DNA from: Candidatus Hermodarchaeota archaeon
Lineage (GTDB): Archaea; Asgardarchaeota; Thorarchaeia; Thorarchaeales; Thorarchaeaceae
Length of the DNA stretch: 33,638 nt
Direction: 5' to 3'
Assembly: GCA_048885865.1 (NCBI GenBank)
Contig: JBHLLF010000025.1
Location: forward strand, 4,179-37,816
Within the stretch, counting starts at the first letter, position 1. The number at the start of each line of letters is the position of its first letter. Below, one piece after another: positions 119-8,475 of the stretch. The notes under the pieces are model-generated. The model was not told the DNA's origin. It made no database searches and saw nothing but the letters and a program-made list of their open reading frames with translations. The translations under genes and the position numbers were made by a program.

Positions 119-1645
119 TTGATGTATGAGCGGCTATGCAACCTATGCGCTCGAATTCCCCCTTTTTCCTCATTGGGTGCGCGGAGAGAGGATCGAGAGC
201 TTGCAAAAGCAGTCAAATTCCTTGAAACAAGGATGCAAGTGAATACACAAGGTGTCTTCGCAGCTTCCTATTTTGCTTCAACATTAGTACTTGTCATTTC
301 ACTCATGGTATTCATTCTGCTTGACGCAAGTATATTGATAGCTTTACCAATATCCGCTATCGTTTCTGCAATAACCTACTATGCTGTAGTGTCCCATCCT
401 GTATCAACCATGAACAGCTATAAGCTCAGCCTATCCGAAGAAGCGGACCTCGTCTTCGAGCAATTCATCCTTGTCTTTCAAACCGGAGGCACAATCTTTG
501 ATGCAATAGAGATGGTAGCTTCATCTGAACACCCCTTCTTGTCAAAGGTCTTTCAGAACATTATGGTGCAGATTCAAGGCGGCACGCCTCCAGAAACGTG
601 CCTGATGGAATTTGCCAAAAATCAGCCCTCTGATGATTTGAGGAGATACATAATGGGCATTCTCTCAGCTCTTGAGAAGAAGACTGAACTCCTTGACCTC
701 CTCTCAGGAGAGTCTTTTGAAGCCGATATGACACTACGCCAAAAGAATCTGGAGCTTGAGAGCCGTCTTTTAGTTGTAGCAGCACTTGCCACCTACATCC
801 CAATAATGCTCACTCTAGCAATTTCACTCGCGGGACATGCCACCAATCTCATTGTCCTTTTGTTGGCACCAATCCTCATAGGACTCAATTCGCTATTGAA
901 AACAAGATTCTCAAGTCAGTTCTCTGCGTACTTCGACAGGCCCAATCGCGAGAATGTGTTATTCCTTCATCAAAGCCATATAGTCGCAGAATATGATGAA
1001 TTCCTAAACTTCCTCATGCTGCTGTCAGAACGTCTGAGGTCCGGCGACACTCTGGAGGTGGCTATCCAGTCTGTCCGCGAAGATGTAGCAGTGGAGATTC
1101 AGAAGCTTATTGATCCGGTCATTACGGCCATAACTTGGGGAGGGAAAAGCATAGAGGAAGCCATGGCCGACGCAGCTAAGATGGCATTGGGTCAGCGGGT
1201 GGCAAATATGATCAAGATGATAACGGTGATGTGTGAGTCTTCTGCTACTGATGCTGGAGACCGGCTGTCAAGGATTGCTGCTCGCCTTGTAAAGCGGTCT
1301 GCAGTGGCAAAAGAGCGCGAGTCAATTATCGCGGCTCAGCGACTCAAGGTGTATCTATTGAGTATCACCAGTTCACTTGTCTTGGGTCTGCTCTCCGCGC
1401 TTTCCCCATTCTTATTCATTGGATCTTTGCTTACTGAGGGACCTACTTGGAGCGCTGGTGATTTGTCTTTACTGAGCATCCTGCCTCTATTCGTCACCTT
1501 ACTTGTCACGACAATATCCACAGGTTATCAAAACACAAGTATGGTTGGAGGTAGGCGTCCAATCTTAATGGGCGCCGTTTGCGGACTTCTATTCTGGGCA
1601 GCTTTCATGCTTTCATCTGCCATTCTAGGGATAGAAATTGTGTGA
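119..1645 (+). CDS. Type II secretion system F family / FlaJ-TadC-like pilus platform membrane protein (two T2SSF repeats)
   Basis: Two cytoplasmic helical repeats, each followed by TM hairpins: 'QTGGTIFDAIEMVA..LSKVFQNIMVQIQGGTPPETCL' and 'RSGDTLEVAIQSV..GGKSIEEAMADAA'. Confidence 0.75.
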   Translation: MMYERLCNLCARIPPFSSLGARREDRELAKAVKFLETRMQVNTQGVFAASYFASTLVLVISLMVFILLDASILIALPISAIVSAITYYAVVSHPVSTMNSYKLSLSEEADLVFEQFILVFQTGGTIFDAIEMVASSEHPFLSKVFQNIMVQIQGGTPPETCLMEFAKNQPSDDLRRYIMGILSALEKKTELLDLLSGESFEADMTLRQKNLELESRLLVVAALATYIPIMLTLAISLAGHATNLIVLLLAPILIGLNSLLKTRFSSQFSAYFDRPNRENVLFLHQSHIVAEYDEFLNFLMLLSERLRSGDTLEVAIQSVREDVAVEIQKLIDPVITAITWGGKSIEEAMADAAKMALGQRVANMIKMITVMCESSATDAGDRLSRIAARLVKRSAVAKERESIIAAQRLKVYLLSITSSLVLGLLSALSPFLFIGSLLTEGPTWSAGDLSLLSILPLFVTLLVTTISTGYQNTSMVGGRRPILMGAVCGLLFWAAFMLSSAILGIEIV

Positions 1646-1702
1646 CATAGGTTTTTTAGACGCGATGGTGAAGTTCGTCTCAGTAAGCAAGAGGTGTAAA
1701 CC

Positions 1703-2356
1703 ATGCTTCAATTCGAGATTTTCGACCTCACCCTAGCTGAAATTGTTGCCTACTTCCAGAATGATGTTGTTATTGCCTGGGTGCTGATTGGCTCTGGTGC
1801 TCTCGCTGCAGCATGGCTGCTTGAGAATATTACAGATCCTATTCCACTTCTCGGAACCATATTCGACGGGTTAGTGGCTATCAGTACCTATCTTGGCTTT
1901 TTTGTAGGCATTCTGGATATGTGTGTAGGCTATGTTGTGTGGGCTGCGAATCCAGACGCAGTGATTGTAGCCGGGCTTCTCGTCCTCATTGGTTTCGCAT
2001 TGAGTATGAGACTGCTCTCAAAGTTTCCTATCGCACTTCTTCTGTCCTTAGGCCTAGCTTTGTTCGGCACATTTACGCTCTATGGAATTCTCACTCCTTA
2101 TGCAGATGCCCCCGTCATAGGTGAATACGTCACGCAAATCATATCTTTGAAATGGATGGCAGTTATTGCCTTCATTATCTTCGCTGTGGTGTATCTTCTA
2201 AGCGGACTTCTGATCAAGTTGATTCAACTAATCGGAAAGGTATTTGCAGCAACTCCAGTCATTGTATTGATTGGACTCGGAGCACTAGCCGTAGGTATCA
2301 TCATATTCTTCAGTCCGACATTAGTTGGACTAGGAGTTCCTTGGCCAGCGCCATAA
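1703..2356 (+). CDS. Hypothetical polytopic membrane protein
   Basis: 217 aa, almost entirely hydrophobic; GAGGTG RBS before the ATG. Confidence 0.8.
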   Translation: MLQFEIFDLTLAEIVAYFQNDVVIAWVLIGSGALAAAWLLENITDPIPLLGTIFDGLVAISTYLGFFVGILDMCVGYVVWAANPDAVIVAGLLVLIGFALSMRLLSKFPIALLLSLGLALFGTFTLYGILTPYADAPVIGEYVTQIISLKWMAVIAFIIFAVVYLLSGLLIKLIQLIGKVFAATPVIVLIGLGALAVGIIIFFSPTLVGLGVPWPAP

Positions 2357-2362
2357 TCGCTT

Positions 2363-2394
2363 GAGGGGAGATGTTCCCCTCCTCCCATCTTTTT
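2363..2394 (+). terminator. Hairpin plus T-tract after 1703..2356
   Basis: GAGGGGA-gatgt-TCCCCTC stem (2363-2381), then TTTTT at 2390-2394, between convergent genes. Confidence 0.5.
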
Positions 2395-2407
2395 CCTCTG
2401 GAATAAC

Positions 2408-2668
2408 TCACATTGTCCGAGGACGTCTTATCTCTCGAATATACAGGAACTTGATTGAGAGGTCTGAATAAAACTTGGCGGCATTGTCGATGCTCTTCTT
2501 CGCCTCAGTGATTCCGGAATACCAGTCTGAAACATAGAATCCTTTCTCACCAAGGTCACCTGAAGCTAGTCGCGTGAATCCGTCTGGCAACTCAAAACCC
2601 ACAGGCACAAACATTGCTACTCTAAATTCACTGTTATTGGTTTCAAGCCAAAGTTCACAATACGACAT
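2408..2668 (-). CDS. Small hypothetical protein
   Basis: 86-aa ATG-started ORF filling the gap between genes, with globular composition. Confidence 0.7.
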   Translation of the reverse strand: MSYCELWLETNNSEFRVAMFVPVGFELPDGFTRLASGDLGEKGFYVSDWYSGITEAKKSIDNAAKFYSDLSIKFLYIREIRRPRTM

Positions 2669-2860
2669 TCATTCACAACTCTGCTCAAGGTTCCCTAACA
2701 AGAAGATTAAGGTTTGCCTGTGTAGATATGCAGCAAAAGGTGTGTCCCAAAGGGTTCAAATAGAAGAAGTCATGTGAAACTAACAAGTCTCAGTAGAATC
2801 AAATACAATCTATGATAGATGAATGTGTCACAGGGCAGACGACACGGAGGATAGGTCAAG

Positions 2861-3505
2861 TTGGCGCTCAGGTTCGAACAATCAACACTCATGAAAGAGA
2901 AAGCTGCAATCGAGAAAAAGGATGAATCTAGCCGCACAAAGCAAGAAAAGGAGAGGCTCCAGGAAATTAATGAATTGCTCAAGAAGAAAATCATTAGTGT
3001 GACCATGAGTCAAGCGCTGGTGAATCGAATTGATGAGCTTGTTCATGAAACTGTTGGTAGGTCTCGGGCTCAGCTCATCGAAGATGCAGTACGATGGTTC
3101 TTGGACTATTCCGTACATAGATGGACTGACCTCGGCCTTTATGTAACTGGTTCTAGGGTAGTGTTGGAATCCGAAACCATGAACTCATTCTTCTTCTCAA
3201 AGCTGACTCCCTCCGATCAGTATGAGCTTGGAATAACATCAGGTAGCCAATCAGCAATCGGGGATGTTATCACACTATATCATGGAACCGATCCATCAGA
3301 TAAGGATAGTCGAGGCCTTATTCTTACACTGCTTCAGAATTTTGGGTGGGGCTTTCTGAAAATGCAAAGCGATGACCTTCTTGTCATAACAAGCCCCTTC
3401 TATCCAGCTCCATTCATACAAGGCTATCTTGAAGCGCTGCTAAAGGTCAAGCTAGAACTGGTTGACACTGCAGGGAAAGATACCGTTGCCCTTCGATTCA
3501 AATAA
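2861..3505 (+). CDS. Ribbon-helix-helix (CopG/NikR-like) regulator with C-terminal V4R-like domain
   Basis: RHH 'ISVTMSQALVNRIDELV..GRSRAQLIEDAVRWFL'; V4R-like 'YELG..LQNFGWG..PFIQGYLEALL'. The start may be the ATG at 2891. Confidence 0.7.
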   Translation: MALRFEQSTLMKEKAAIEKKDESSRTKQEKERLQEINELLKKKIISVTMSQALVNRIDELVHETVGRSRAQLIEDAVRWFLDYSVHRWTDLGLYVTGSRVVLESETMNSFFFSKLTPSDQYELGITSGSQSAIGDVITLYHGTDPSDKDSRGLILTLLQNFGWGFLKMQSDDLLVITSPFYPAPFIQGYLEALLKVKLELVDTAGKDTVALRFK

Positions 3506-3528
3506 CTCGAGTCCTGCAAATCAGCAGT

Positions 3529-3954
3529 CTACCATTCTTCACCAAGTTCAAGTATCTCGAACTCTGCATCATATAGTCCTGGAATGCTCTCTATGGTGCT
3601 TCTAATAGTTGGCTCCTTCTGCCTGATTTCATCTGCTGCAAAATATACCTCATAGACACATCGATTCTCCTCGAAGCAGAATCCTGTAGTGAACAGCACC
3701 TTGAGGTCATGAGCCTTAAACAGCTGAGTCATAGTTTGCATGAGGGCAGGATTGACCTTCTCGACCTCGAGCCTGACACGTGCCCCACCTTCCTTCATCA
3801 TCGGAATGAGTCTTATCTCACCCGACCTTTCAAAATAGATTACCATTGCAGCTTTCATGTCACCAAGTTCTGGATTATTGAAGAAGTCCTCTGGAAGGGT
3901 AATCGCCCGCTTCTTCTTGACATCTGCAATCATACCTTTCGTTAGCCCGGCCAC
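3529..3954 (-). CDS. AbrB/SpoVT-like DNA-binding domain plus ACT-like domain protein
   Basis: N-terminal 'ADVKKKRAITLPEDF..GEIRLIPM' swapped-hairpin pattern; C-terminal ferredoxin-like ACT pattern containing 'TTGFCFEENRCVYEVYF'. Confidence 0.6.
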   Translation of the reverse strand: MAGLTKGMIADVKKKRAITLPEDFFNNPELGDMKAAMVIYFERSGEIRLIPMMKEGGARVRLEVEKVNPALMQTMTQLFKAHDLKVLFTTGFCFEENRCVYEVYFAADEIRQKEPTIRSTIESIPGLYDAEFEILELGEEW

Positions 3955-4103: not shown

Positions 4104-4226
4104 ATGGGAAAGGAAGGAGAATTATACGTCTGTGACATCTGTCAGCAGGTAGTGCGCGTAGTGAAATACGGCGCTGGAACCCTGGTTTGCTGTGGTCAAC
4201 CGATGAGGCTGTTTGAGGACGACTAG
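4104..4226 (+). CDS. Stand-alone desulforedoxin-like Fe(Cys)4 protein (40 aa; not in ORF track)
   Basis: Translated by hand: MGKEGELYVCDICQQVVRVVKYGAGTLVCCGQPMRLFEDD*. It has the YxCxxC...GxGxLVCCG.xM desulforedoxin motif and an AGGAG RBS at 4088-4092. Confidence 0.9.
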   Translation: MGKEGELYVCDICQQVVRVVKYGAGTLVCCGQPMRLFEDD

Positions 4227-4275: not shown

Positions 4276-4286
4276 AATCTTTATAT
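4276..4286 (+). promoter_or_regulatory. Putative TATA box of the first RPB5-like gene
   Basis: AATCTTTATAT about 47 nt upstream of ATG 4333; the identical 11-mer precedes the second copy. Confidence 0.5.
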
Positions 4287-4332
4287 GATAAGCTGAATCG
4301 GCGACTGCTAGACCTTCTTTGGATGTGTTTCT

Positions 4333-4887
4333 ATGATAGAGTTCCCAAGCAATGTGATAAAGACTAGGAACCTCCTCACCCTTCGAGCTTTTGAGGTTGA
4401 GGAATTGCTCGAATATGAGAATCGTTTTGAGATGCATCCGATTAAGAAATTAGAAGATGGGACAATCAAGTCCGTTGTCTGGATTCTGAAAGAGCCTCGC
4501 GTCGTAGGGATTGCGCTTATCAAAGATTTGGTCAAGAAGATGGAAGAGGTTCAAGCGCTTGAGGGCATCTTGGTAGGCGGTTCTAGATTCACACCAGCCG
4601 CAAAGAAGCATGCCAGGGACATGAGGGTGGAACTTGTCGTGGGTAACTATGCATCATTTGATCTGTTCTCACATGAACTCGTTCCTCCGCATAGCATTGC
4701 TGATGAAGATGAAGTGTCTCTAGTCCTAGAGTATTATGGCATAACCCGCGACCAAATTCCTCGAATCCTAAGAAACGACCCAGCTGTGAAAGTACTAGGA
4801 GCCAAACCTGGGCAAGTAGTCAGAATTGAACGAGATAGTGATACTGCTGGAGGAGTCTATTATTACAGACTAGTAGTCACCTCCTAG
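4333..4887 (+). CDS. rpo5: RNA polymerase subunit Rpo5/RPB5 homolog with N-terminal jaw (restriction-endonuclease-like) domain, copy 1
   Basis: C-terminal assembly domain 'HELVPPH..QIPRILRNDPAVKVLGAKPGQVVRIERDSDTAG..YYRLV'. The ~105-aa N-terminal domain has 'EPRVVGIALIKDLVKKM..GILVGGSRFTPAAK'. Confidence 0.9.
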   Translation: MIEFPSNVIKTRNLLTLRAFEVEELLEYENRFEMHPIKKLEDGTIKSVVWILKEPRVVGIALIKDLVKKMEEVQALEGILVGGSRFTPAAKKHARDMRVELVVGNYASFDLFSHELVPPHSIADEDEVSLVLEYYGITRDQIPRILRNDPAVKVLGAKPGQVVRIERDSDTAGGVYYYRLVVTS

Positions 4888-4938
4888 AATCAAATCTTCT
4901 TTCAAATACTGCTTCATTTGCAAAAATCCCTAGTTGGG

Positions 4939-4949
4939 AATCTTTATAT
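4939..4949 (+). promoter_or_regulatory. Putative TATA box of the second RPB5-like gene
   Basis: AATCTTTATAT about 41 nt upstream of GTG 4990, identical to 4276-4286. Confidence 0.5.
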
Positions 4950-4989
4950 CTCGCGCCTAGGATTGCGTTGTAATTTAGGGTGTTTTCTC

Positions 4990-5550
4990 GTGGTTGAATT
5001 CCCGACTTTAGTCATGAAGACCAGAGGTCTCCTTACTCTTAGAGGCTACCTTGTAGAAGAATTGCTGGAATACGAGGACCGGTATGTGATGCATCCTACA
5101 AGGGAGTCTGAAGACGTCACTGTCAAATCAGTAGTATGGATTTTCAAGGTGCCAAAAGTGGTAGGAGTGGCTGTTGTTAGGGAACTAGTGAAGGCGATGG
5201 AGGAGGCTCAAGCACAGGAGGGTATGCTTGTGGGGGGCTCTAGAGTCACTCCAGCATCAAAGAAGCTCGCTCGCGAAATGCGTGTGGAGCTTGTGGAGGG
5301 AGGCTATTCATCATTTGACCTCTTTGGCCACAGTCTTGTTCCGAAACATGTGGTTGCAGATGAGGAAGAGGTTCAACTTGTTCTTGACCACTACGGCATC
5401 AGAAGATCACAGCTGCCTCGAATCTATCGGACTGATGCCGCCGTCAAGGTACTGGGTGCAAAAACAGGCCAGGTGATTCGAATCCAACGTGAGAGTGATA
5501 CTGCAGGGCTCTCCTATTACTATCGTCTGATTGTTGACCCAGGGCGATGA
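4990..5550 (+). CDS. rpo5: RNA polymerase subunit Rpo5/RPB5 homolog with N-terminal jaw domain, copy 2
   Basis: Start revised from 4918 to GTG 4990 because MVEFPTLV aligns with MIEFPSNV of copy 1. Ungapped alignment to copy 1 gives about 124/184 identities by hand count. Motifs 'LRGYLV', 'HSLVPKH', 'QLPRI', 'SDTAG..YYRL'. Confidence 0.9.
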   Translation: MVEFPTLVMKTRGLLTLRGYLVEELLEYEDRYVMHPTRESEDVTVKSVVWIFKVPKVVGVAVVRELVKAMEEAQAQEGMLVGGSRVTPASKKLAREMRVELVEGGYSSFDLFGHSLVPKHVVADEEEVQLVLDHYGIRRSQLPRIYRTDAAVKVLGAKTGQVIRIQRESDTAGLSYYYRLIVDPGR

Positions 5551-5552
5551 GA

Positions 5553-6353
5553 TTAGAAAGATACTACGCCCAATGCCATTCCAGCAAAGACCATGACTAC
5601 GCATGTAATGAGGGGCAAGAGTATATTATCCGTCCCTTTTGGGCTTATGGCTTCCACAATGGTTGCAGTGCACGCACCTATCAGCGCTAGCAGAATCATT
5701 TGGATCCACAAGATATTGCCACCACTTACAAAGACACCATAGTTCACGATGCCAAAGAACCAGAATGCCAATAGCGCGCCCAGAAAACCAAAGACAAACA
5801 CTGCTACGCACCCCTGCAGGCTACGTTTTGACCCGAAGATGATTCGAGTCGAATTCGTTCCATATCGCATGCCTATGGGTGCTCCCATCCCGTCTCCAAA
5901 CATCATGATATGAATTGCAGCTGCTGCGATGAAATAGAGATTGTCATAACCAGTGAATGTGAAGGACGCAGTTAGGATGGTTATCGACACGGCATACCAC
6001 AGAGGGCCACGCACACTGCCATGTTCGAGGTCCTCTGGCCTCGCCATTGCTTCAAAAAACTTGCTGAATCGTTCGTGATTAGCAAGAGCTAGCATGACTA
6101 CGAAAGTGAGAGCAACAAGTGTAGCTACCCAGGGATGTGGGTAGTAAGGGACAGTCCATATTGCAATCCCAGCAAATATATGAACGATTCTTCTTGTCAC
6201 CTCTGACCCAAGATTCCTTTTCTTTCTAGCAATGTCGGCTATTGTTAGAATCATCGTCGCGTAGGCGATAGCTATGAAGTAGACAAGGATATCACTAAGG
6301 TCAATGGAGAAAACCACTTGCATGTCTGTTCCGCTCTTGTACAATCCGTACAA
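5553..6353 (-). CDS. Polyprenol/dolichol/phytol kinase-like membrane protein (CTP-dependent, cytidylyltransferase family)
   Basis: Motifs 'TRRIVHI', 'GPLWYA', 'FGDGMGAPIGMRYG', 'KRSLQG', 'VEAISPKGTDNILLP'. The true start may be ATG 6323. Confidence 0.8.
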   Translation of the reverse strand: MYGLYKSGTDMQVVFSIDLSDILVYFIAIAYATMILTIADIARKKRNLGSEVTRRIVHIFAGIAIWTVPYYPHPWVATLVALTFVVMLALANHERFSKFFEAMARPEDLEHGSVRGPLWYAVSITILTASFTFTGYDNLYFIAAAAIHIMMFGDGMGAPIGMRYGTNSTRIIFGSKRSLQGCVAVFVFGFLGALLAFWFFGIVNYGVFVSGGNILWIQMILLALIGACTATIVEAISPKGTDNILLPLITCVVMVFAGMALGVVSF

Positions 6354-6414
6354 ACTCTCAGGATATATCTATCGGCAAGTATCTTCAATAAAGTCACTTG
6401 CCTGCATAAGATCT

Positions 6415-6451
6415 AAAAAAGGAAAAATCGAAGGCGGATTCGGCCGCCTTC
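6415..6451 (-). terminator. GC hairpin plus T-tract after 6467..6889
   Basis: GAAGGCGG-attcgg-CCGCCTTC 8-bp stem (6430-6451), followed on the minus strand by TTTTTCCTTTTTT. Confidence 0.65.
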
Positions 6452-6466
6452 CAATTTTGATTGGAG

Positions 6467-6889
6467 CTATGCGTAATAGCAATGTACCATGACGCTTGAT
6501 ATATTCAGGTCTTTCGCTGCTGATACTTCACACCATACTCTGACCATTACCGATTCCCAGACACTGGCATCAACAGCTGGAAAGTTCCGTGTTCTCAACT
6601 CACTATTGACAATCGGCTGGTCATCGGTGAACAGTTGTTCATTCCTGTCATATGCTACTCCATAGACAATGTATTTCTTTACACTGTTTGCTGGATCCGC
6701 ATCGAACACACCCACTTTTACTCCATCAATATGTAGTTTCAAGTTGCCCTTTGTTGCCGGGAGGGGTACTCTGAACATCAGTTGGAAATCTGTGTCGTCA
6801 ACATTGTCAAAATACGGACCGGCCATCTGAACGCTGTTCGCAGGCTTCGATAATTCATATACTGCTGGAATCCACGCTTCATCGACCAT
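6467..6889 (-). CDS. Hypothetical protein, probably all-beta
   Basis: 140 aa with alternating beta-strand patterns; has its own AT-rich upstream region and terminator. Confidence 0.8.
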   Translation of the reverse strand: MVDEAWIPAVYELSKPANSVQMAGPYFDNVDDTDFQLMFRVPLPATKGNLKLHIDGVKVGVFDADPANSVKKYIVYGVAYDRNEQLFTDDQPIVNSELRTRNFPAVDASVWESVMVRVWCEVSAAKDLNISSVMVHCYYA

Positions 6890-7008
6890 GGTTATTCACA
6901 TTTTGCTTTTTATACCATATTGATTTAAAGAAAAGGTGGATGTCTTGTGAACGCACTCTGAATATAGAAACCGCATTAGTACAAGATGACAATTCATCAA
7001 AATACTAC

Positions 7009-7815
7009 CTATTCTTCAACAGGTTTGGACTGAACTCCAGTTTCCTCCTCTAAGCTGGCGATTGCCTTAATTACAATCTCTGTTAGCTCTGCATCATTTG
7101 TGCCTCTTGCAGAAACCCAGACTCTGAGGACATCTGTTGTTCCATATCTTCTTGGCAATGATTTGATATAGACTCCAGGCATCTTCTTCATTGCTCTATC
7201 AATATAGGGGGCAAAAACGGACTCATCTTTGAGTCCAAATTCAACTATCTTCTCAACATAAATTTCAGTTACTCTTTCTGTCACCCATGGCCGCACAGAA
7301 TTCTCAAAGATGTACTTCAGTTCCGCAGGCACTCCAGGCAGACAAAATATCGTTGTATCACTGATTTCAAGCATAACTCCAGGTGCTCCGCCTACTGAAT
7401 TATCCAGCGGGATCGCTCCTTCCGGTATCCGTGCCATTTTCTTCCGAGGTTCAGAAATGTCTGAGTTTGCAACGATTCCCTTTTCGCTCAGCATTTTGTA
7501 TTGCCTCTCAACAATTGACAGGGCATCCTTATCCTCAACCAGAGGCAGACCAAGATGTTCTCCGATGGCTTCTAAGGTCATATCATCATGCGTCGGGCCG
7601 AGGCCACCAGATGTGATAACCAATTGGCAATTCCCACCCAAAAAATCAAGCGCAGCACCAATCTCCTCCTTGATATCTCGAACGCCAACTAAACGGTGGA
7701 TCTCCGCAGAAAGCGCGGTGAGACGAATTCCCATCCAGTTTGCATTGGTATCAAGTACCAGTCCATCAAGAACTTCGTTTCCAATTGTGATAATCCCTGC
7801 CTTCACTAGCACCAC
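7009..7815 (-). CDS. cinA: CinA N-terminal / molybdopterin-binding-domain protein (COG1058-type, probable ADP-ribose/FAD pyrophosphatase; no PncC domain)
   Basis: Motifs 'IITIGNEVLDGLVLDTNA', 'TSGGLGPTHDDMT', 'GGAPG', 'LPGVPAEL'. Confidence 0.85.
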   Translation of the reverse strand: MVLVKAGIITIGNEVLDGLVLDTNANWMGIRLTALSAEIHRLVGVRDIKEEIGAALDFLGGNCQLVITSGGLGPTHDDMTLEAIGEHLGLPLVEDKDALSIVERQYKMLSEKGIVANSDISEPRKKMARIPEGAIPLDNSVGGAPGVMLEISDTTIFCLPGVPAELKYIFENSVRPWVTERVTEIYVEKIVEFGLKDESVFAPYIDRAMKKMPGVYIKSLPRRYGTTDVLRVWVSARGTNDAELTEIVIKAIASLEEETGVQSKPVEE

Positions 7816-8475
7816 CTATATTGAATTATCAGCCAATTCAAGTTCAGTTTCCAATTCCTTAGCGAAATATTCGAGCGTCGCAAATCTCTTCTTCGCCAGT
7901 TCCTTCCCTAGCTCAGTGTTCATACTCCCAACAATCCTTTCCGCAAGCTTCAGAAACTCATTAACAGCGGCCGAAACCTCATCTAGCAAGAATCCTGGAT
8001 TTATCTTGATACCATTTACCATGAAGTGAATCAGTCCAATCGCTCCCAGTTTCACAATCTTATCAGCGTCCCAGAGCACTTGTGCCTCAAGGGGTTGAAT
8101 GGGTTTTTCAAGTGTTAGTCCTACATGCTTGCGAATCGTATCACACACTCTATCAATCACTTCTAGACTGACAGACTTGGCAAGAAGAATCTCCCTTGCT
8201 CTTTCGGCTCCCGTATCACCGTGCTTTTGAACCCCGCCCATTCCAGGCTTCGCTATATCATGAAGCCATGCTGCGAGAGTGACGATTTCTTCATCAGCTC
8301 CTACATGCCTAGCTATTTCCTTTGCTATGTCTACAACATACTTCACGTGGTCAAACCTATAGTTGTAAAGAGCCACGTTGTTATTCGTTTGAGCTGAAAG
8401 CCATTCCTCAATAGCGGCCTTCTCAGAGCTTTCTCTCACTATCTCTTCTAGCTCTGCCTCAAGTCCTTTTTTCAT
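7816..8475 (-). CDS. HD-domain metal-dependent phosphohydrolase
   Basis: Motifs 'RFDHVKYV', 'AAWLHDIAK', 'HGDTGA', 'IRKH', 'LWDADKI'; abuts the cinA-like gene. Confidence 0.9.
   Translation of the reverse strand: MKKGLEAELEEIVRESSEKAAIEEWLSAQTNNNVALYNYRFDHVKYVVDIAKEIARHVGADEEIVTLAAWLHDIAKPGMGGVQKHGDTGAERAREILLAKSVSLEVIDRVCDTIRKHVGLTLEKPIQPLEAQVLWDADKIVKLGAIGLIHFMVNGIKINPGFLLDEVSAAVNEFLKLAERIVGSMNTELGKELAKKRFATLEYFAKELETELELADNSI

Follow-up and report, generated by a model that had tools for sequence, protein, structure and literature searches.

Tandem two-domain RNA polymerase subunit 5 genes in a Thorarchaeota genome carry an apparent homologue of the eukaryotic RPB5 jaw

The tandem genes described here probably code for subunit 5 of this archaeon's RNA polymerase, as a two-domain protein with a single origin shared with eukaryotic RPB5. 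They lie on the plus strand of the window (the whole 33,638-nucleotide stretch of DNA analysed) as two open reading frames, 4333-4887 (184 aa) and 4990-5550 (186 aa from a GTG codon), with 102 nt between them. The first-pass annotation of this DNA had described two reading frames of about 185 aa that end in an Rpo5/RPB5 C-terminal domain, and both were found as described, with Rpb5_C covering residues 110-181 in each. Its larger claim, that an archaeon has a two-domain Rpo5 resembling RPB5, finds support in a profile built from the N-domain alone, in structure, in a tree, in the conservation of residues that are critical in yeast and in the absence of any other Rpo5 type among the genes found in this genome. 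Its wording of the N-domain as a eukaryote-like jaw stands with qualifications: homology to the eukaryotic jaw is supported, but similarity is nearer to Mrr nucleases and a separate archaeal fusion is not rejected. The features of the locus are:

4280..4287, plus strand: TATA-box-like element TTTATATG, about 53 nt upstream of copy 1 (positional motif; function inferred)
4333..4887, plus strand: long Rpo5, copy 1, 184 aa (open reading frame; Pfam and NCBIfam; dN/dS about 0.06-0.16 against close orthologues)
4333..4650, plus strand: copy 1 N-domain, residues 1-106, apparent dead Mrr-like fold and RPB5 jaw homologue (model, N-domain-only profile, catalytic columns)
4660..4875, plus strand: copy 1 Rpb5_C assembly domain, residues 110-181 (PF01191, E=1.4e-25)
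4943..4950, plus strand: TATA-box-like element TTTATATC, about 47 nt upstream of copy 2 (positional motif; function inferred)
4990..5550, plus strand: long Rpo5, copy 2, 186 aa from GTG 4990 (open reading frame; Pfam Rpb5_C 8e-26, Mrr_cat 4.6e-7; dN/dS about 0.02-0.09)
4990..5307, plus strand: copy 2 N-domain, residues 1-106, apparent dead Mrr-like jaw homologue (V33, W50 and F52 at the catalytic columns)
5317..5532, plus strand: copy 2 Rpb5_C assembly domain, residues 110-181 (PF01191)

The two copies are 67% identical as proteins and 64% identical as DNA (66% for the N-domains), and their nearest relatives, at up to 93% identity, come from records mostly labelled Candidatus Thorarchaeota. 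A start of copy 2 at TTG 4918, which would give 210 aa, was rejected; GTG 4990 is the better start because its register matches that of copy 1 and because the TATA box at 4943 would fall within the longer reading. An assembly artefact was also rejected, with the copies only 64% identical in DNA and the pair seen in 35 other loci, as was pseudogene status for either copy. The neighbourhood of the pair is conserved and unrelated to transcription. Specifically, a block covering window positions 119-3954 and 5553-8475 was found in 43-60 of 66 Thorarchaeota loci, and it holds genes for a T2SSF-domain membrane protein (119-1645), an unknown 217-aa ORF, a ribbon-helix-helix protein (2861-3505), an unknown 141-aa ORF, a 266-aa membrane protein without a Pfam match, a molybdopterin-binding-domain (CinA-like) protein and an HD protein. 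A stand-alone 40-aa desulfoferrodoxin N-terminal metal-binding domain (PF06397, E 5e-14) is encoded just 5' of copy 1 (4104-4226, plus strand). A 140-aa ORF at 6467-6889 on the minus strand, which has no Pfam or NCBIfam match and is absent from all 66 related loci, is a lineage-specific insert in this otherwise conserved block.

The C-domain of both copies is, on sequence grounds, a canonical RpoH. Its PF01191 scores are 89-90 bits (E 1.4e-25 and 8e-26) against a cut-off of 23.5, the cut-off of 83 for the NCBIfam RpoH equivalog PRK09570 is exceeded in both copies (93.4 in copy 1, 92.2 in copy 2), and identity to solved archaeal subunits (8cro_H, 2pmz_H) is 40-55%. In yeast Rpb5 the critical residues of the C-terminal module are H147, P151, D182, R200 and R212 (PMC1802627); at a constant offset of 33 these correspond to H114, P118, D149, R167 and R179, which are present in both copies. 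In the yeast system even human Rpb5 is limited by the segment corresponding to yeast residues 120-146 (PMC1802627). The whole assembly (3.58 Mb, 87% complete) contains exactly two Rpb5_C matches, copies 1 and 2. A short rpoH was not found anywhere in this 87% complete assembly, nor was one found when sought ahead of rpoB in the rpoB-rpoA1-rpoA2 run on a separate contig. Thus the long pair, which lies outside the rpoB-rpoA operon, is the only Rpo5 type found in this Thorarchaeota genome; since the assembly is 87% complete a short gene could still be missing, though its usual site is empty.

Docking on Rpo1, which the first-pass annotation had proposed as a check, was predicted for the C-terminal part of the protein. 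A co-fold of copy 1 with the genome's own Rpo1'' and the Rpo1' tail scored 0.79, as compared with 0.00 for the best of three controls, with at least 91% contact agreement between runs and a partner pLDDT of at least 81; the mark used for such co-folds is reached by 58 of 80 solved complexes and by two of 110 mismatched pairs. The confident interface with Rpo1 comprises residues 105-182, that is the linker and Rpb5_C, while residues 1-104 make no confident contact in this co-fold, from which DNA and most of Rpo1' were left out and in which residues outside the interface are merely uncertain. Complexes of this kind have already been solved, so the result amounts to likeness only and does not demonstrate binding. 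The C-domain and linker are therefore predicted to dock on Rpo1 as in all Rpo5/RPB5 proteins, a prediction that may be recall of the solved complexes, and incorporation of the long Rpo5 into the polymerase as a stoichiometric subunit remains an inference. The full-length model leaves the relative placement of the two domains unresolved (pTM 0.57; linker residues 106-117 below pLDDT 50). As a separate observation on the partner, the first ~55 residues of Rpo1'' (rpoA2, L035:14757-14930, G000:C23) are rich in Lys, Ala and Thr and are not covered by matches from other genomes.

The identity of the N-domain is less direct. Pfam matches residues 1-106 to Mrr_cat and NA-iREase1 (Mrr_cat in copy 2 scoring 30.4 against a cut-off of 21, E 4.6e-7), whereas neither of the two Rpo5 proteins is matched by Rpb5_N (PF03871, cut-off 27), which reaches no more than 14-17 bits in some proteins of other Asgard genomes and gives just one chance match, containing stops, across this genome. 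The comparison of these two families that the first-pass annotation had suggested thus came out for Mrr_cat. Folded alone, the N-domain gives a confident restriction-endonuclease fold (pLDDT 91.8, pTM 0.83). The superposition on RPB5 that had also been suggested succeeds end to end, with residues 1-106 falling on residues 5-135 of human RPB5 (7vba_E) at Z 10.3 (rmsd 3.2 A, 101 aligned, 21% identity), but nucleases are equally close, the top structural matches being EndoMS/NucS (Z 11.2, rmsd 2.8 A, 97 aligned, 13%) and AF1548 (Z 10.9, 12%). With Z values tied within about 1, the fold by itself does not decide between RPB5 and nuclease. Identity to the nucleases of similar Z is 12-14%, as against the 21% to human RPB5.

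When a profile of the N-domain only, built from 37 diverse Asgard proteins, was searched against the PDB, all 11 matches with E<0.001 were eukaryotic RPB5 and none was a nuclease (human RPB5 1.6e-9, Arabidopsis 1.7e-8, yeast 6.8e-5; next match E=0.23). The same profile searched against 1.84 billion proteins retrieved archaeal long Rpo5 first, and then Mrr and eukaryotic or virus-like RPB5 interleaved. In profile-profile alignment (hhalign) the scores were 126 for Asgard-Mrr, 94 for Asgard-virus-like, 70 for Asgard-eukaryote, 61 for eukaryote-Mrr and 60 for virus-like-Mrr. Note that the Mrr sequences had been selected as those matching the Asgard profile best, so that the value of 126 is inflated, and that the eukaryotic and virus-like jaw profiles both score higher against Asgard than against Mrr. 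By raw similarity the Asgard N-domain would accordingly be ranked as an intermediate that is nearer to Mrr than to RPB5-N.

The first-pass annotation had seen no PD-(D/E)xK catalytic residues in the N-domain, and alignment to 24 Mrr nucleases confirms this. The catalytic Asp (24/24 nucleases) aligns to E33 in copy 1 and V33 in copy 2, and the QxK motif (Q in 23/24, K in 24/24) aligns to W50-I-L52 in copy 1 and W50-I-F52 in copy 2. Among Thorarchaeota-group copies the Asp column is mostly Val or Ala, and the QxK position reads W-x-hydrophobic in 105 of 106, with W50 itself also in 105 of 106. The motifs on which the annotation had based its RPB5 diagnosis fared less well. These motifs do occur, but the order given was a composite, as RGYLV is found in copy 2 (RAFEV in copy 1) and HELVP in copy 1 (HSLVP in copy 2); moreover R-x-Y, VG and T-x-x-A are not diagnostic alone because they are also common in active Mrr nucleases. 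A better RPB5 marker is R18, the Arg of the DRGY motif at the end of helix 1, which is equivalent to yeast R26, a residue where charge inversion (R26E) is lethal (PMC1802627). It is present in 106/106 Thorarchaeota-group copies (LRAF in copy 1, LRGY in copy 2), 23/23 Asgard, 10/10 Bathyarchaeia-like, 6/6 eukaryotic and 10/10 virus-like rows, and in 12/24 Mrr rows. The eukaryotic helical insert of ~20 columns between RGY and the first core strand is a gap in all archaeal rows shown, and many virus-like sequences also lack it. The net charge of the N-domains is near neutral (+1 and -1), so any DNA contact by this domain would be local. Taken at the level of sequence and predicted fold, the N-domain is an Mrr/NucS-type fold without catalytic residues that is homologous to RPB5-N; it is not a member of PF03871 as defined, and an RPB5-N-like function is inferred.

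The long Rpo5 is not peculiar to this genome. The N-domain is found in 89/121 Asgard genomes, almost all-or-none per family, and was not found in the genomes of seven Asgard families (0/4, 0/1, 0/15, 0/1, 0/3, 0/4 and 0/2). At the level of loci it is fused to Rpb5_C in 21 of 28 Asgard families, with short Rpo5 in six and one case unclear; judging from genome sizes, the short-form families presumably include the Odin, Loki and Atabeya groups. The long form is thus common across Asgard archaea, and it is also present in Bathyarchaeia (its spread outside Asgard was not counted), with database labels that include Hodarchaeales (MHA2499950.1), Heimdallarchaeota (MCG3217569.1), Helarchaeota (MHA1310242.1) and Bathyarchaeia (MFA5869380.1). 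Placement of rpoH directly upstream of rpoB is the general archaeal arrangement. Short Rpo5 genes lie directly before rpoB in 12/12 loci from 6/6 families, while long Rpo5 genes do so in 0/54 loci from 21 families and in 0/66 further Thorarchaeota-group loci, counts in which some loci stop at contig edges and kin are not independent. That form tracks gene order suggests that the long gene arose outside the operon and then replaced the short one, although repeated loss of the jaw is still possible. A split or free N-domain beside short Rpo5 genes was considered and rejected, as none was seen in the loci or genomes searched.

Several unusual relatives were observed during this survey. Families f14 and f26 (L102:1447-2841, L106, L110, L114-L116) have an Rpo5 of ~440-500 aa with two to three tandem dead nuclease domains before Rpb5_C, and the domain copy adjacent to Rpb5_C is the sole source of Pfam Rpb5_N scores, which are weak (14-17 bits). 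Bathyarchaeota proteins of ~196-250 aa (P0227, P0197, P0210 and relatives; L141), annotated 'restriction endonuclease' (MDH5376011.1), carry the dead N-domain with a different C-terminal part and no Rpb5_C, and group in the tree with Bathyarchaeia-like long Rpo5. Family f21 has, besides its long Rpo5, a second stand-alone N-domain ORF (111-123 aa open frame; G061:C32:9926-10222, G044:C54:1070-1366, G053:C117:4995-5291). The short 'subunit H' records P0315 (OGD57471.1, 81 aa) and P0410 (MFQ6074875.1, 91 aa) cluster with long forms of 182-191 aa; in these records the start codon may have been placed too far downstream, so that the jaw domain would be missing from the annotated protein. At L130:1484-2221 (family f11), Rpb5_C ends a 246-aa open frame that has no N-domain profile match and no adjoining rpoB; this protein could be either a long form that has diverged or another kind of fusion. 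Finally, in some long Rpo5 proteins (L112 and L119 in f5; L103-L105 in f17, f20 and f23) the C-terminus is extended by as much as ~90 aa, or Rpb5_C contains an insertion close to its end.

In an N-domain tree (77 rows, 110 columns) the 24 Mrr nucleases fall on one side (99/88; 99% of bootstrap trees) and the archaeal, eukaryotic and virus-like jaws fall opposite. The first-pass annotation had held that its reading would be refuted if the N-domain grouped with active Mrr nucleases, and with the nucleases forming their own side of the tree this is not the case. The eukaryote/virus group (100/100, no archaeon inside) is placed among Asgard rows at 80/92, and when a full-length tree is rooted on Bathyarchaeia-like rows this group again falls within Asgard (80/87). 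Given this level of support, and given that an AU test does not reject archaeal N-domain monophyly apart from the eukaryotic ones (p 0.49), a single fusion is the simplest reading and is not proven. Note that eukaryotic sampling in these trees is thin (5-10 sequences) and that 'viral' rows are labelled from sequence reading alone. The unrejected monophyly leaves room for a convergent fusion, in which archaeal Rpo5 captured a dead Mrr domain independently and the two jaws share a fold but not a fusion event. The raw similarity being higher to Mrr than to RPB5-N fits such an event, and related dead domains without Rpb5_C in Bathyarchaeota and one Asgard family indicate that the module is mobile. 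Convergence is nonetheless improbable in our judgement, as it must contend with a tree that has Mrr on one side and all Rpo5/RPB5 N-domains on the other, with the same partner domain, order and short linker in archaea and eukaryotes, with an invariant R18 common to archaeal and eukaryotic jaws, and with a eukaryotic jaw whose best match is Asgard rather than Mrr. Entry of the long gene into archaea from a proto-eukaryote or giant virus, with displacement of the operon's rpoH, is very improbable: archaeal N-domains fall between Mrr and the eukaryote/virus group, they keep more ancestral nuclease features (Asp in 10/23 Asgard rows, 0/6 eukaryotic), archaeal forms are deeply diverse (17-33% identity between families), and no archaeon falls inside the eukaryotic and virus-like branch. 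What such a transfer would explain is that long copies are always outside the rpoH-rpoB arrangement, as expected of a horizontally acquired replacement, and that many virus-like RPB5s are also without the eukaryotic insert.

A further alternative concerns history only and is compatible with jaw homology. If the two-domain form were ancestral to Asgard and TACK archaea, short Asgard forms would have arisen by repeated jaw loss, which would account for short forms appearing in at least three places of the full-length tree and for long forms occurring in both Asgard and Bathyarchaeia. However, all 12 short loci (six families) are directly upstream of rpoB, so under this scenario the gene would also have had to return to the operon several times, and short C-domains as one clade are not rejected (the quick free tree is 10.9 lnL worse than the constrained one, p 0.68); we regard repeated loss as unlikely without dismissing it. 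We give hardly any credence to the remaining possibility, that the N-domain is an active or regulatory nuclease with at least one copy working outside the polymerase. The Mrr_cat score above the Pfam cut-off in copy 2 and the Glu at the catalytic Asp column in copy 1 would suit a nuclease, but the altered QxK and Asp columns described above do not, and all Rpo1-binding residues are kept in both copies.

The pair itself is present in 36 loci, with a spacing of 71-135 nt and paralogues that are 58-74% identical; many Thorarchaeota carry one copy, and outside the Thorarchaeota family 0/251 genomes have more than one match. In the ten genomes of the window's own group first and second copies fall into clades of their own (support 99 and 98, respectively), which places the duplication before that group; this is a quick tree in which deeper relations are unresolved. 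A TATA-like motif at -38..-62 is found before 35/36 first copies (3/36 and 1/36 in two control windows) and 25/36 second copies (1/36 and 3/36 in control windows). In comparisons with close orthologues dN is far below dS in both copies (dN/dS 0.02-0.16), showing both to be under purifying selection, and 14 positions are fixed differently between copy 1 and copy 2 in ten close genomes. It would go further to propose both that archaea made the jaw out of an inactive Mrr nuclease and that the Thorarchaeota paralogues are swapped into a single RNA polymerase to give two functionally different forms, a joint proposal that we consider doubtful. Support for the two-form half is only indirect, resting on the age of the duplication, the purifying selection on both copies, the TATA box that each of them has and the 14 fixed differences; no functional difference has been demonstrated, and dosage or redundancy would explain these observations as well.

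Compared with eukaryotic RPB5/RPABC1 (POLR2E; PF03871 + PF01191; PDB 1dzf, 7vba_E), the long Rpo5 has the same two domains in the same order (N-domain Z 9.9-10.3), keeps the equivalents of yeast R26, H147, P151, D182, R200 and R212, and is ~33% identical over residues 41-181, but it is ~25 aa shorter, without the helical insert after RGY, and is missed by Pfam Rpb5_N. Thorarchaeota have two paralogues for one polymerase whereas eukaryotes have one RPB5 in three. Canonical archaeal Rpo5/RpoH differs from the long form, which has 106 extra N-terminal residues, lies outside the rpoB-rpoA operon and is duplicated; the N-terminal jaw residues have been described as absent from archaeal Rpo5 (PMC2675907). 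Mrr-type endonucleases (PF04471), NucS/EndoMS, AF1548 and NA-iREase1 (PF22722) share the fold (Z 10-11) and clear profile similarity, and the N-domain differs from them in lacking the catalytic Asp and QxK, in its fusion to Rpb5_C and in its separate place in the tree. NCLDV RPB5 (ASFV 8q3b_E) also has the two-domain layout and gives the best full-length structural match (Z 11.2, rmsd 8.2 A, 169 aligned); as noted for the virus-like rows, many such sequences lack the eukaryotic insert, and they group with eukaryotic RPB5 and not with archaea.

We consider it likely that the jaw of eukaryotic RPB5 originated in archaea, from an Mrr nuclease that had lost its activity. In the history that we infer, an rpoH copy outside the rpo operon would have been joined to such an inactive Mrr-type nuclease, and the resulting long gene would then have taken the place of the short operon gene in most lineages of Asgard and in some Bathyarchaeia. 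The long form would have passed to eukaryotes, which added the helical insert of ~20 residues, and within Thorarchaeota a later tandem duplication would have produced the pair, with both members retained under separate promoters. In Sulfolobus the space next to the clamp head is open or occupied by Rpo13, and in eukaryotes it is occupied by the Rpb5 jaw (PMC2675907), which there binds downstream DNA (PMC2675907, PMC1802627). By inference the archaeal N-domain may fill this site, and contact with downstream DNA in the cleft is likewise inferred.

The jaw has been called eukaryote-specific in the literature (PMC1802627, PMC2675907). We found no report of a long archaeal Rpo5 in the accessible parts of the literature, including those of a 2026 survey of archaeal polymerase subunits (PMC13257274), a 2018 review (PMC7289017), the supplements of PMC10307638 and bioRxiv 2024.07.03.601958; subscription journals and supplements were mostly outside the scope of this search, and an earlier mention in one of these is possible. 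The sequences are already public under the plain name 'subunit H', and the long form may have gone unnoticed because of this name, because Pfam labels its N-domain Mrr_cat and because the presumed Loki and Odin families are short-form. Rpb8, the other supposed eukaryote-only polymerase feature, has since turned up in archaea. With a homologue of the jaw in most families of Asgard and in some Bathyarchaeia, the last such feature would disappear, its source would be identified as a dead Mrr-type nuclease, and living intermediates would be at hand. The jaw's original job becomes directly testable by domain swaps in yeast or in a reconstituted archaeal polymerase. Two swapped paralogues in Thorarchaeota, if true, would be a subunit-level parallel to the diversification of eukaryotic polymerases. 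The jaw part of eukaryotic polymerases probably arose in archaea.
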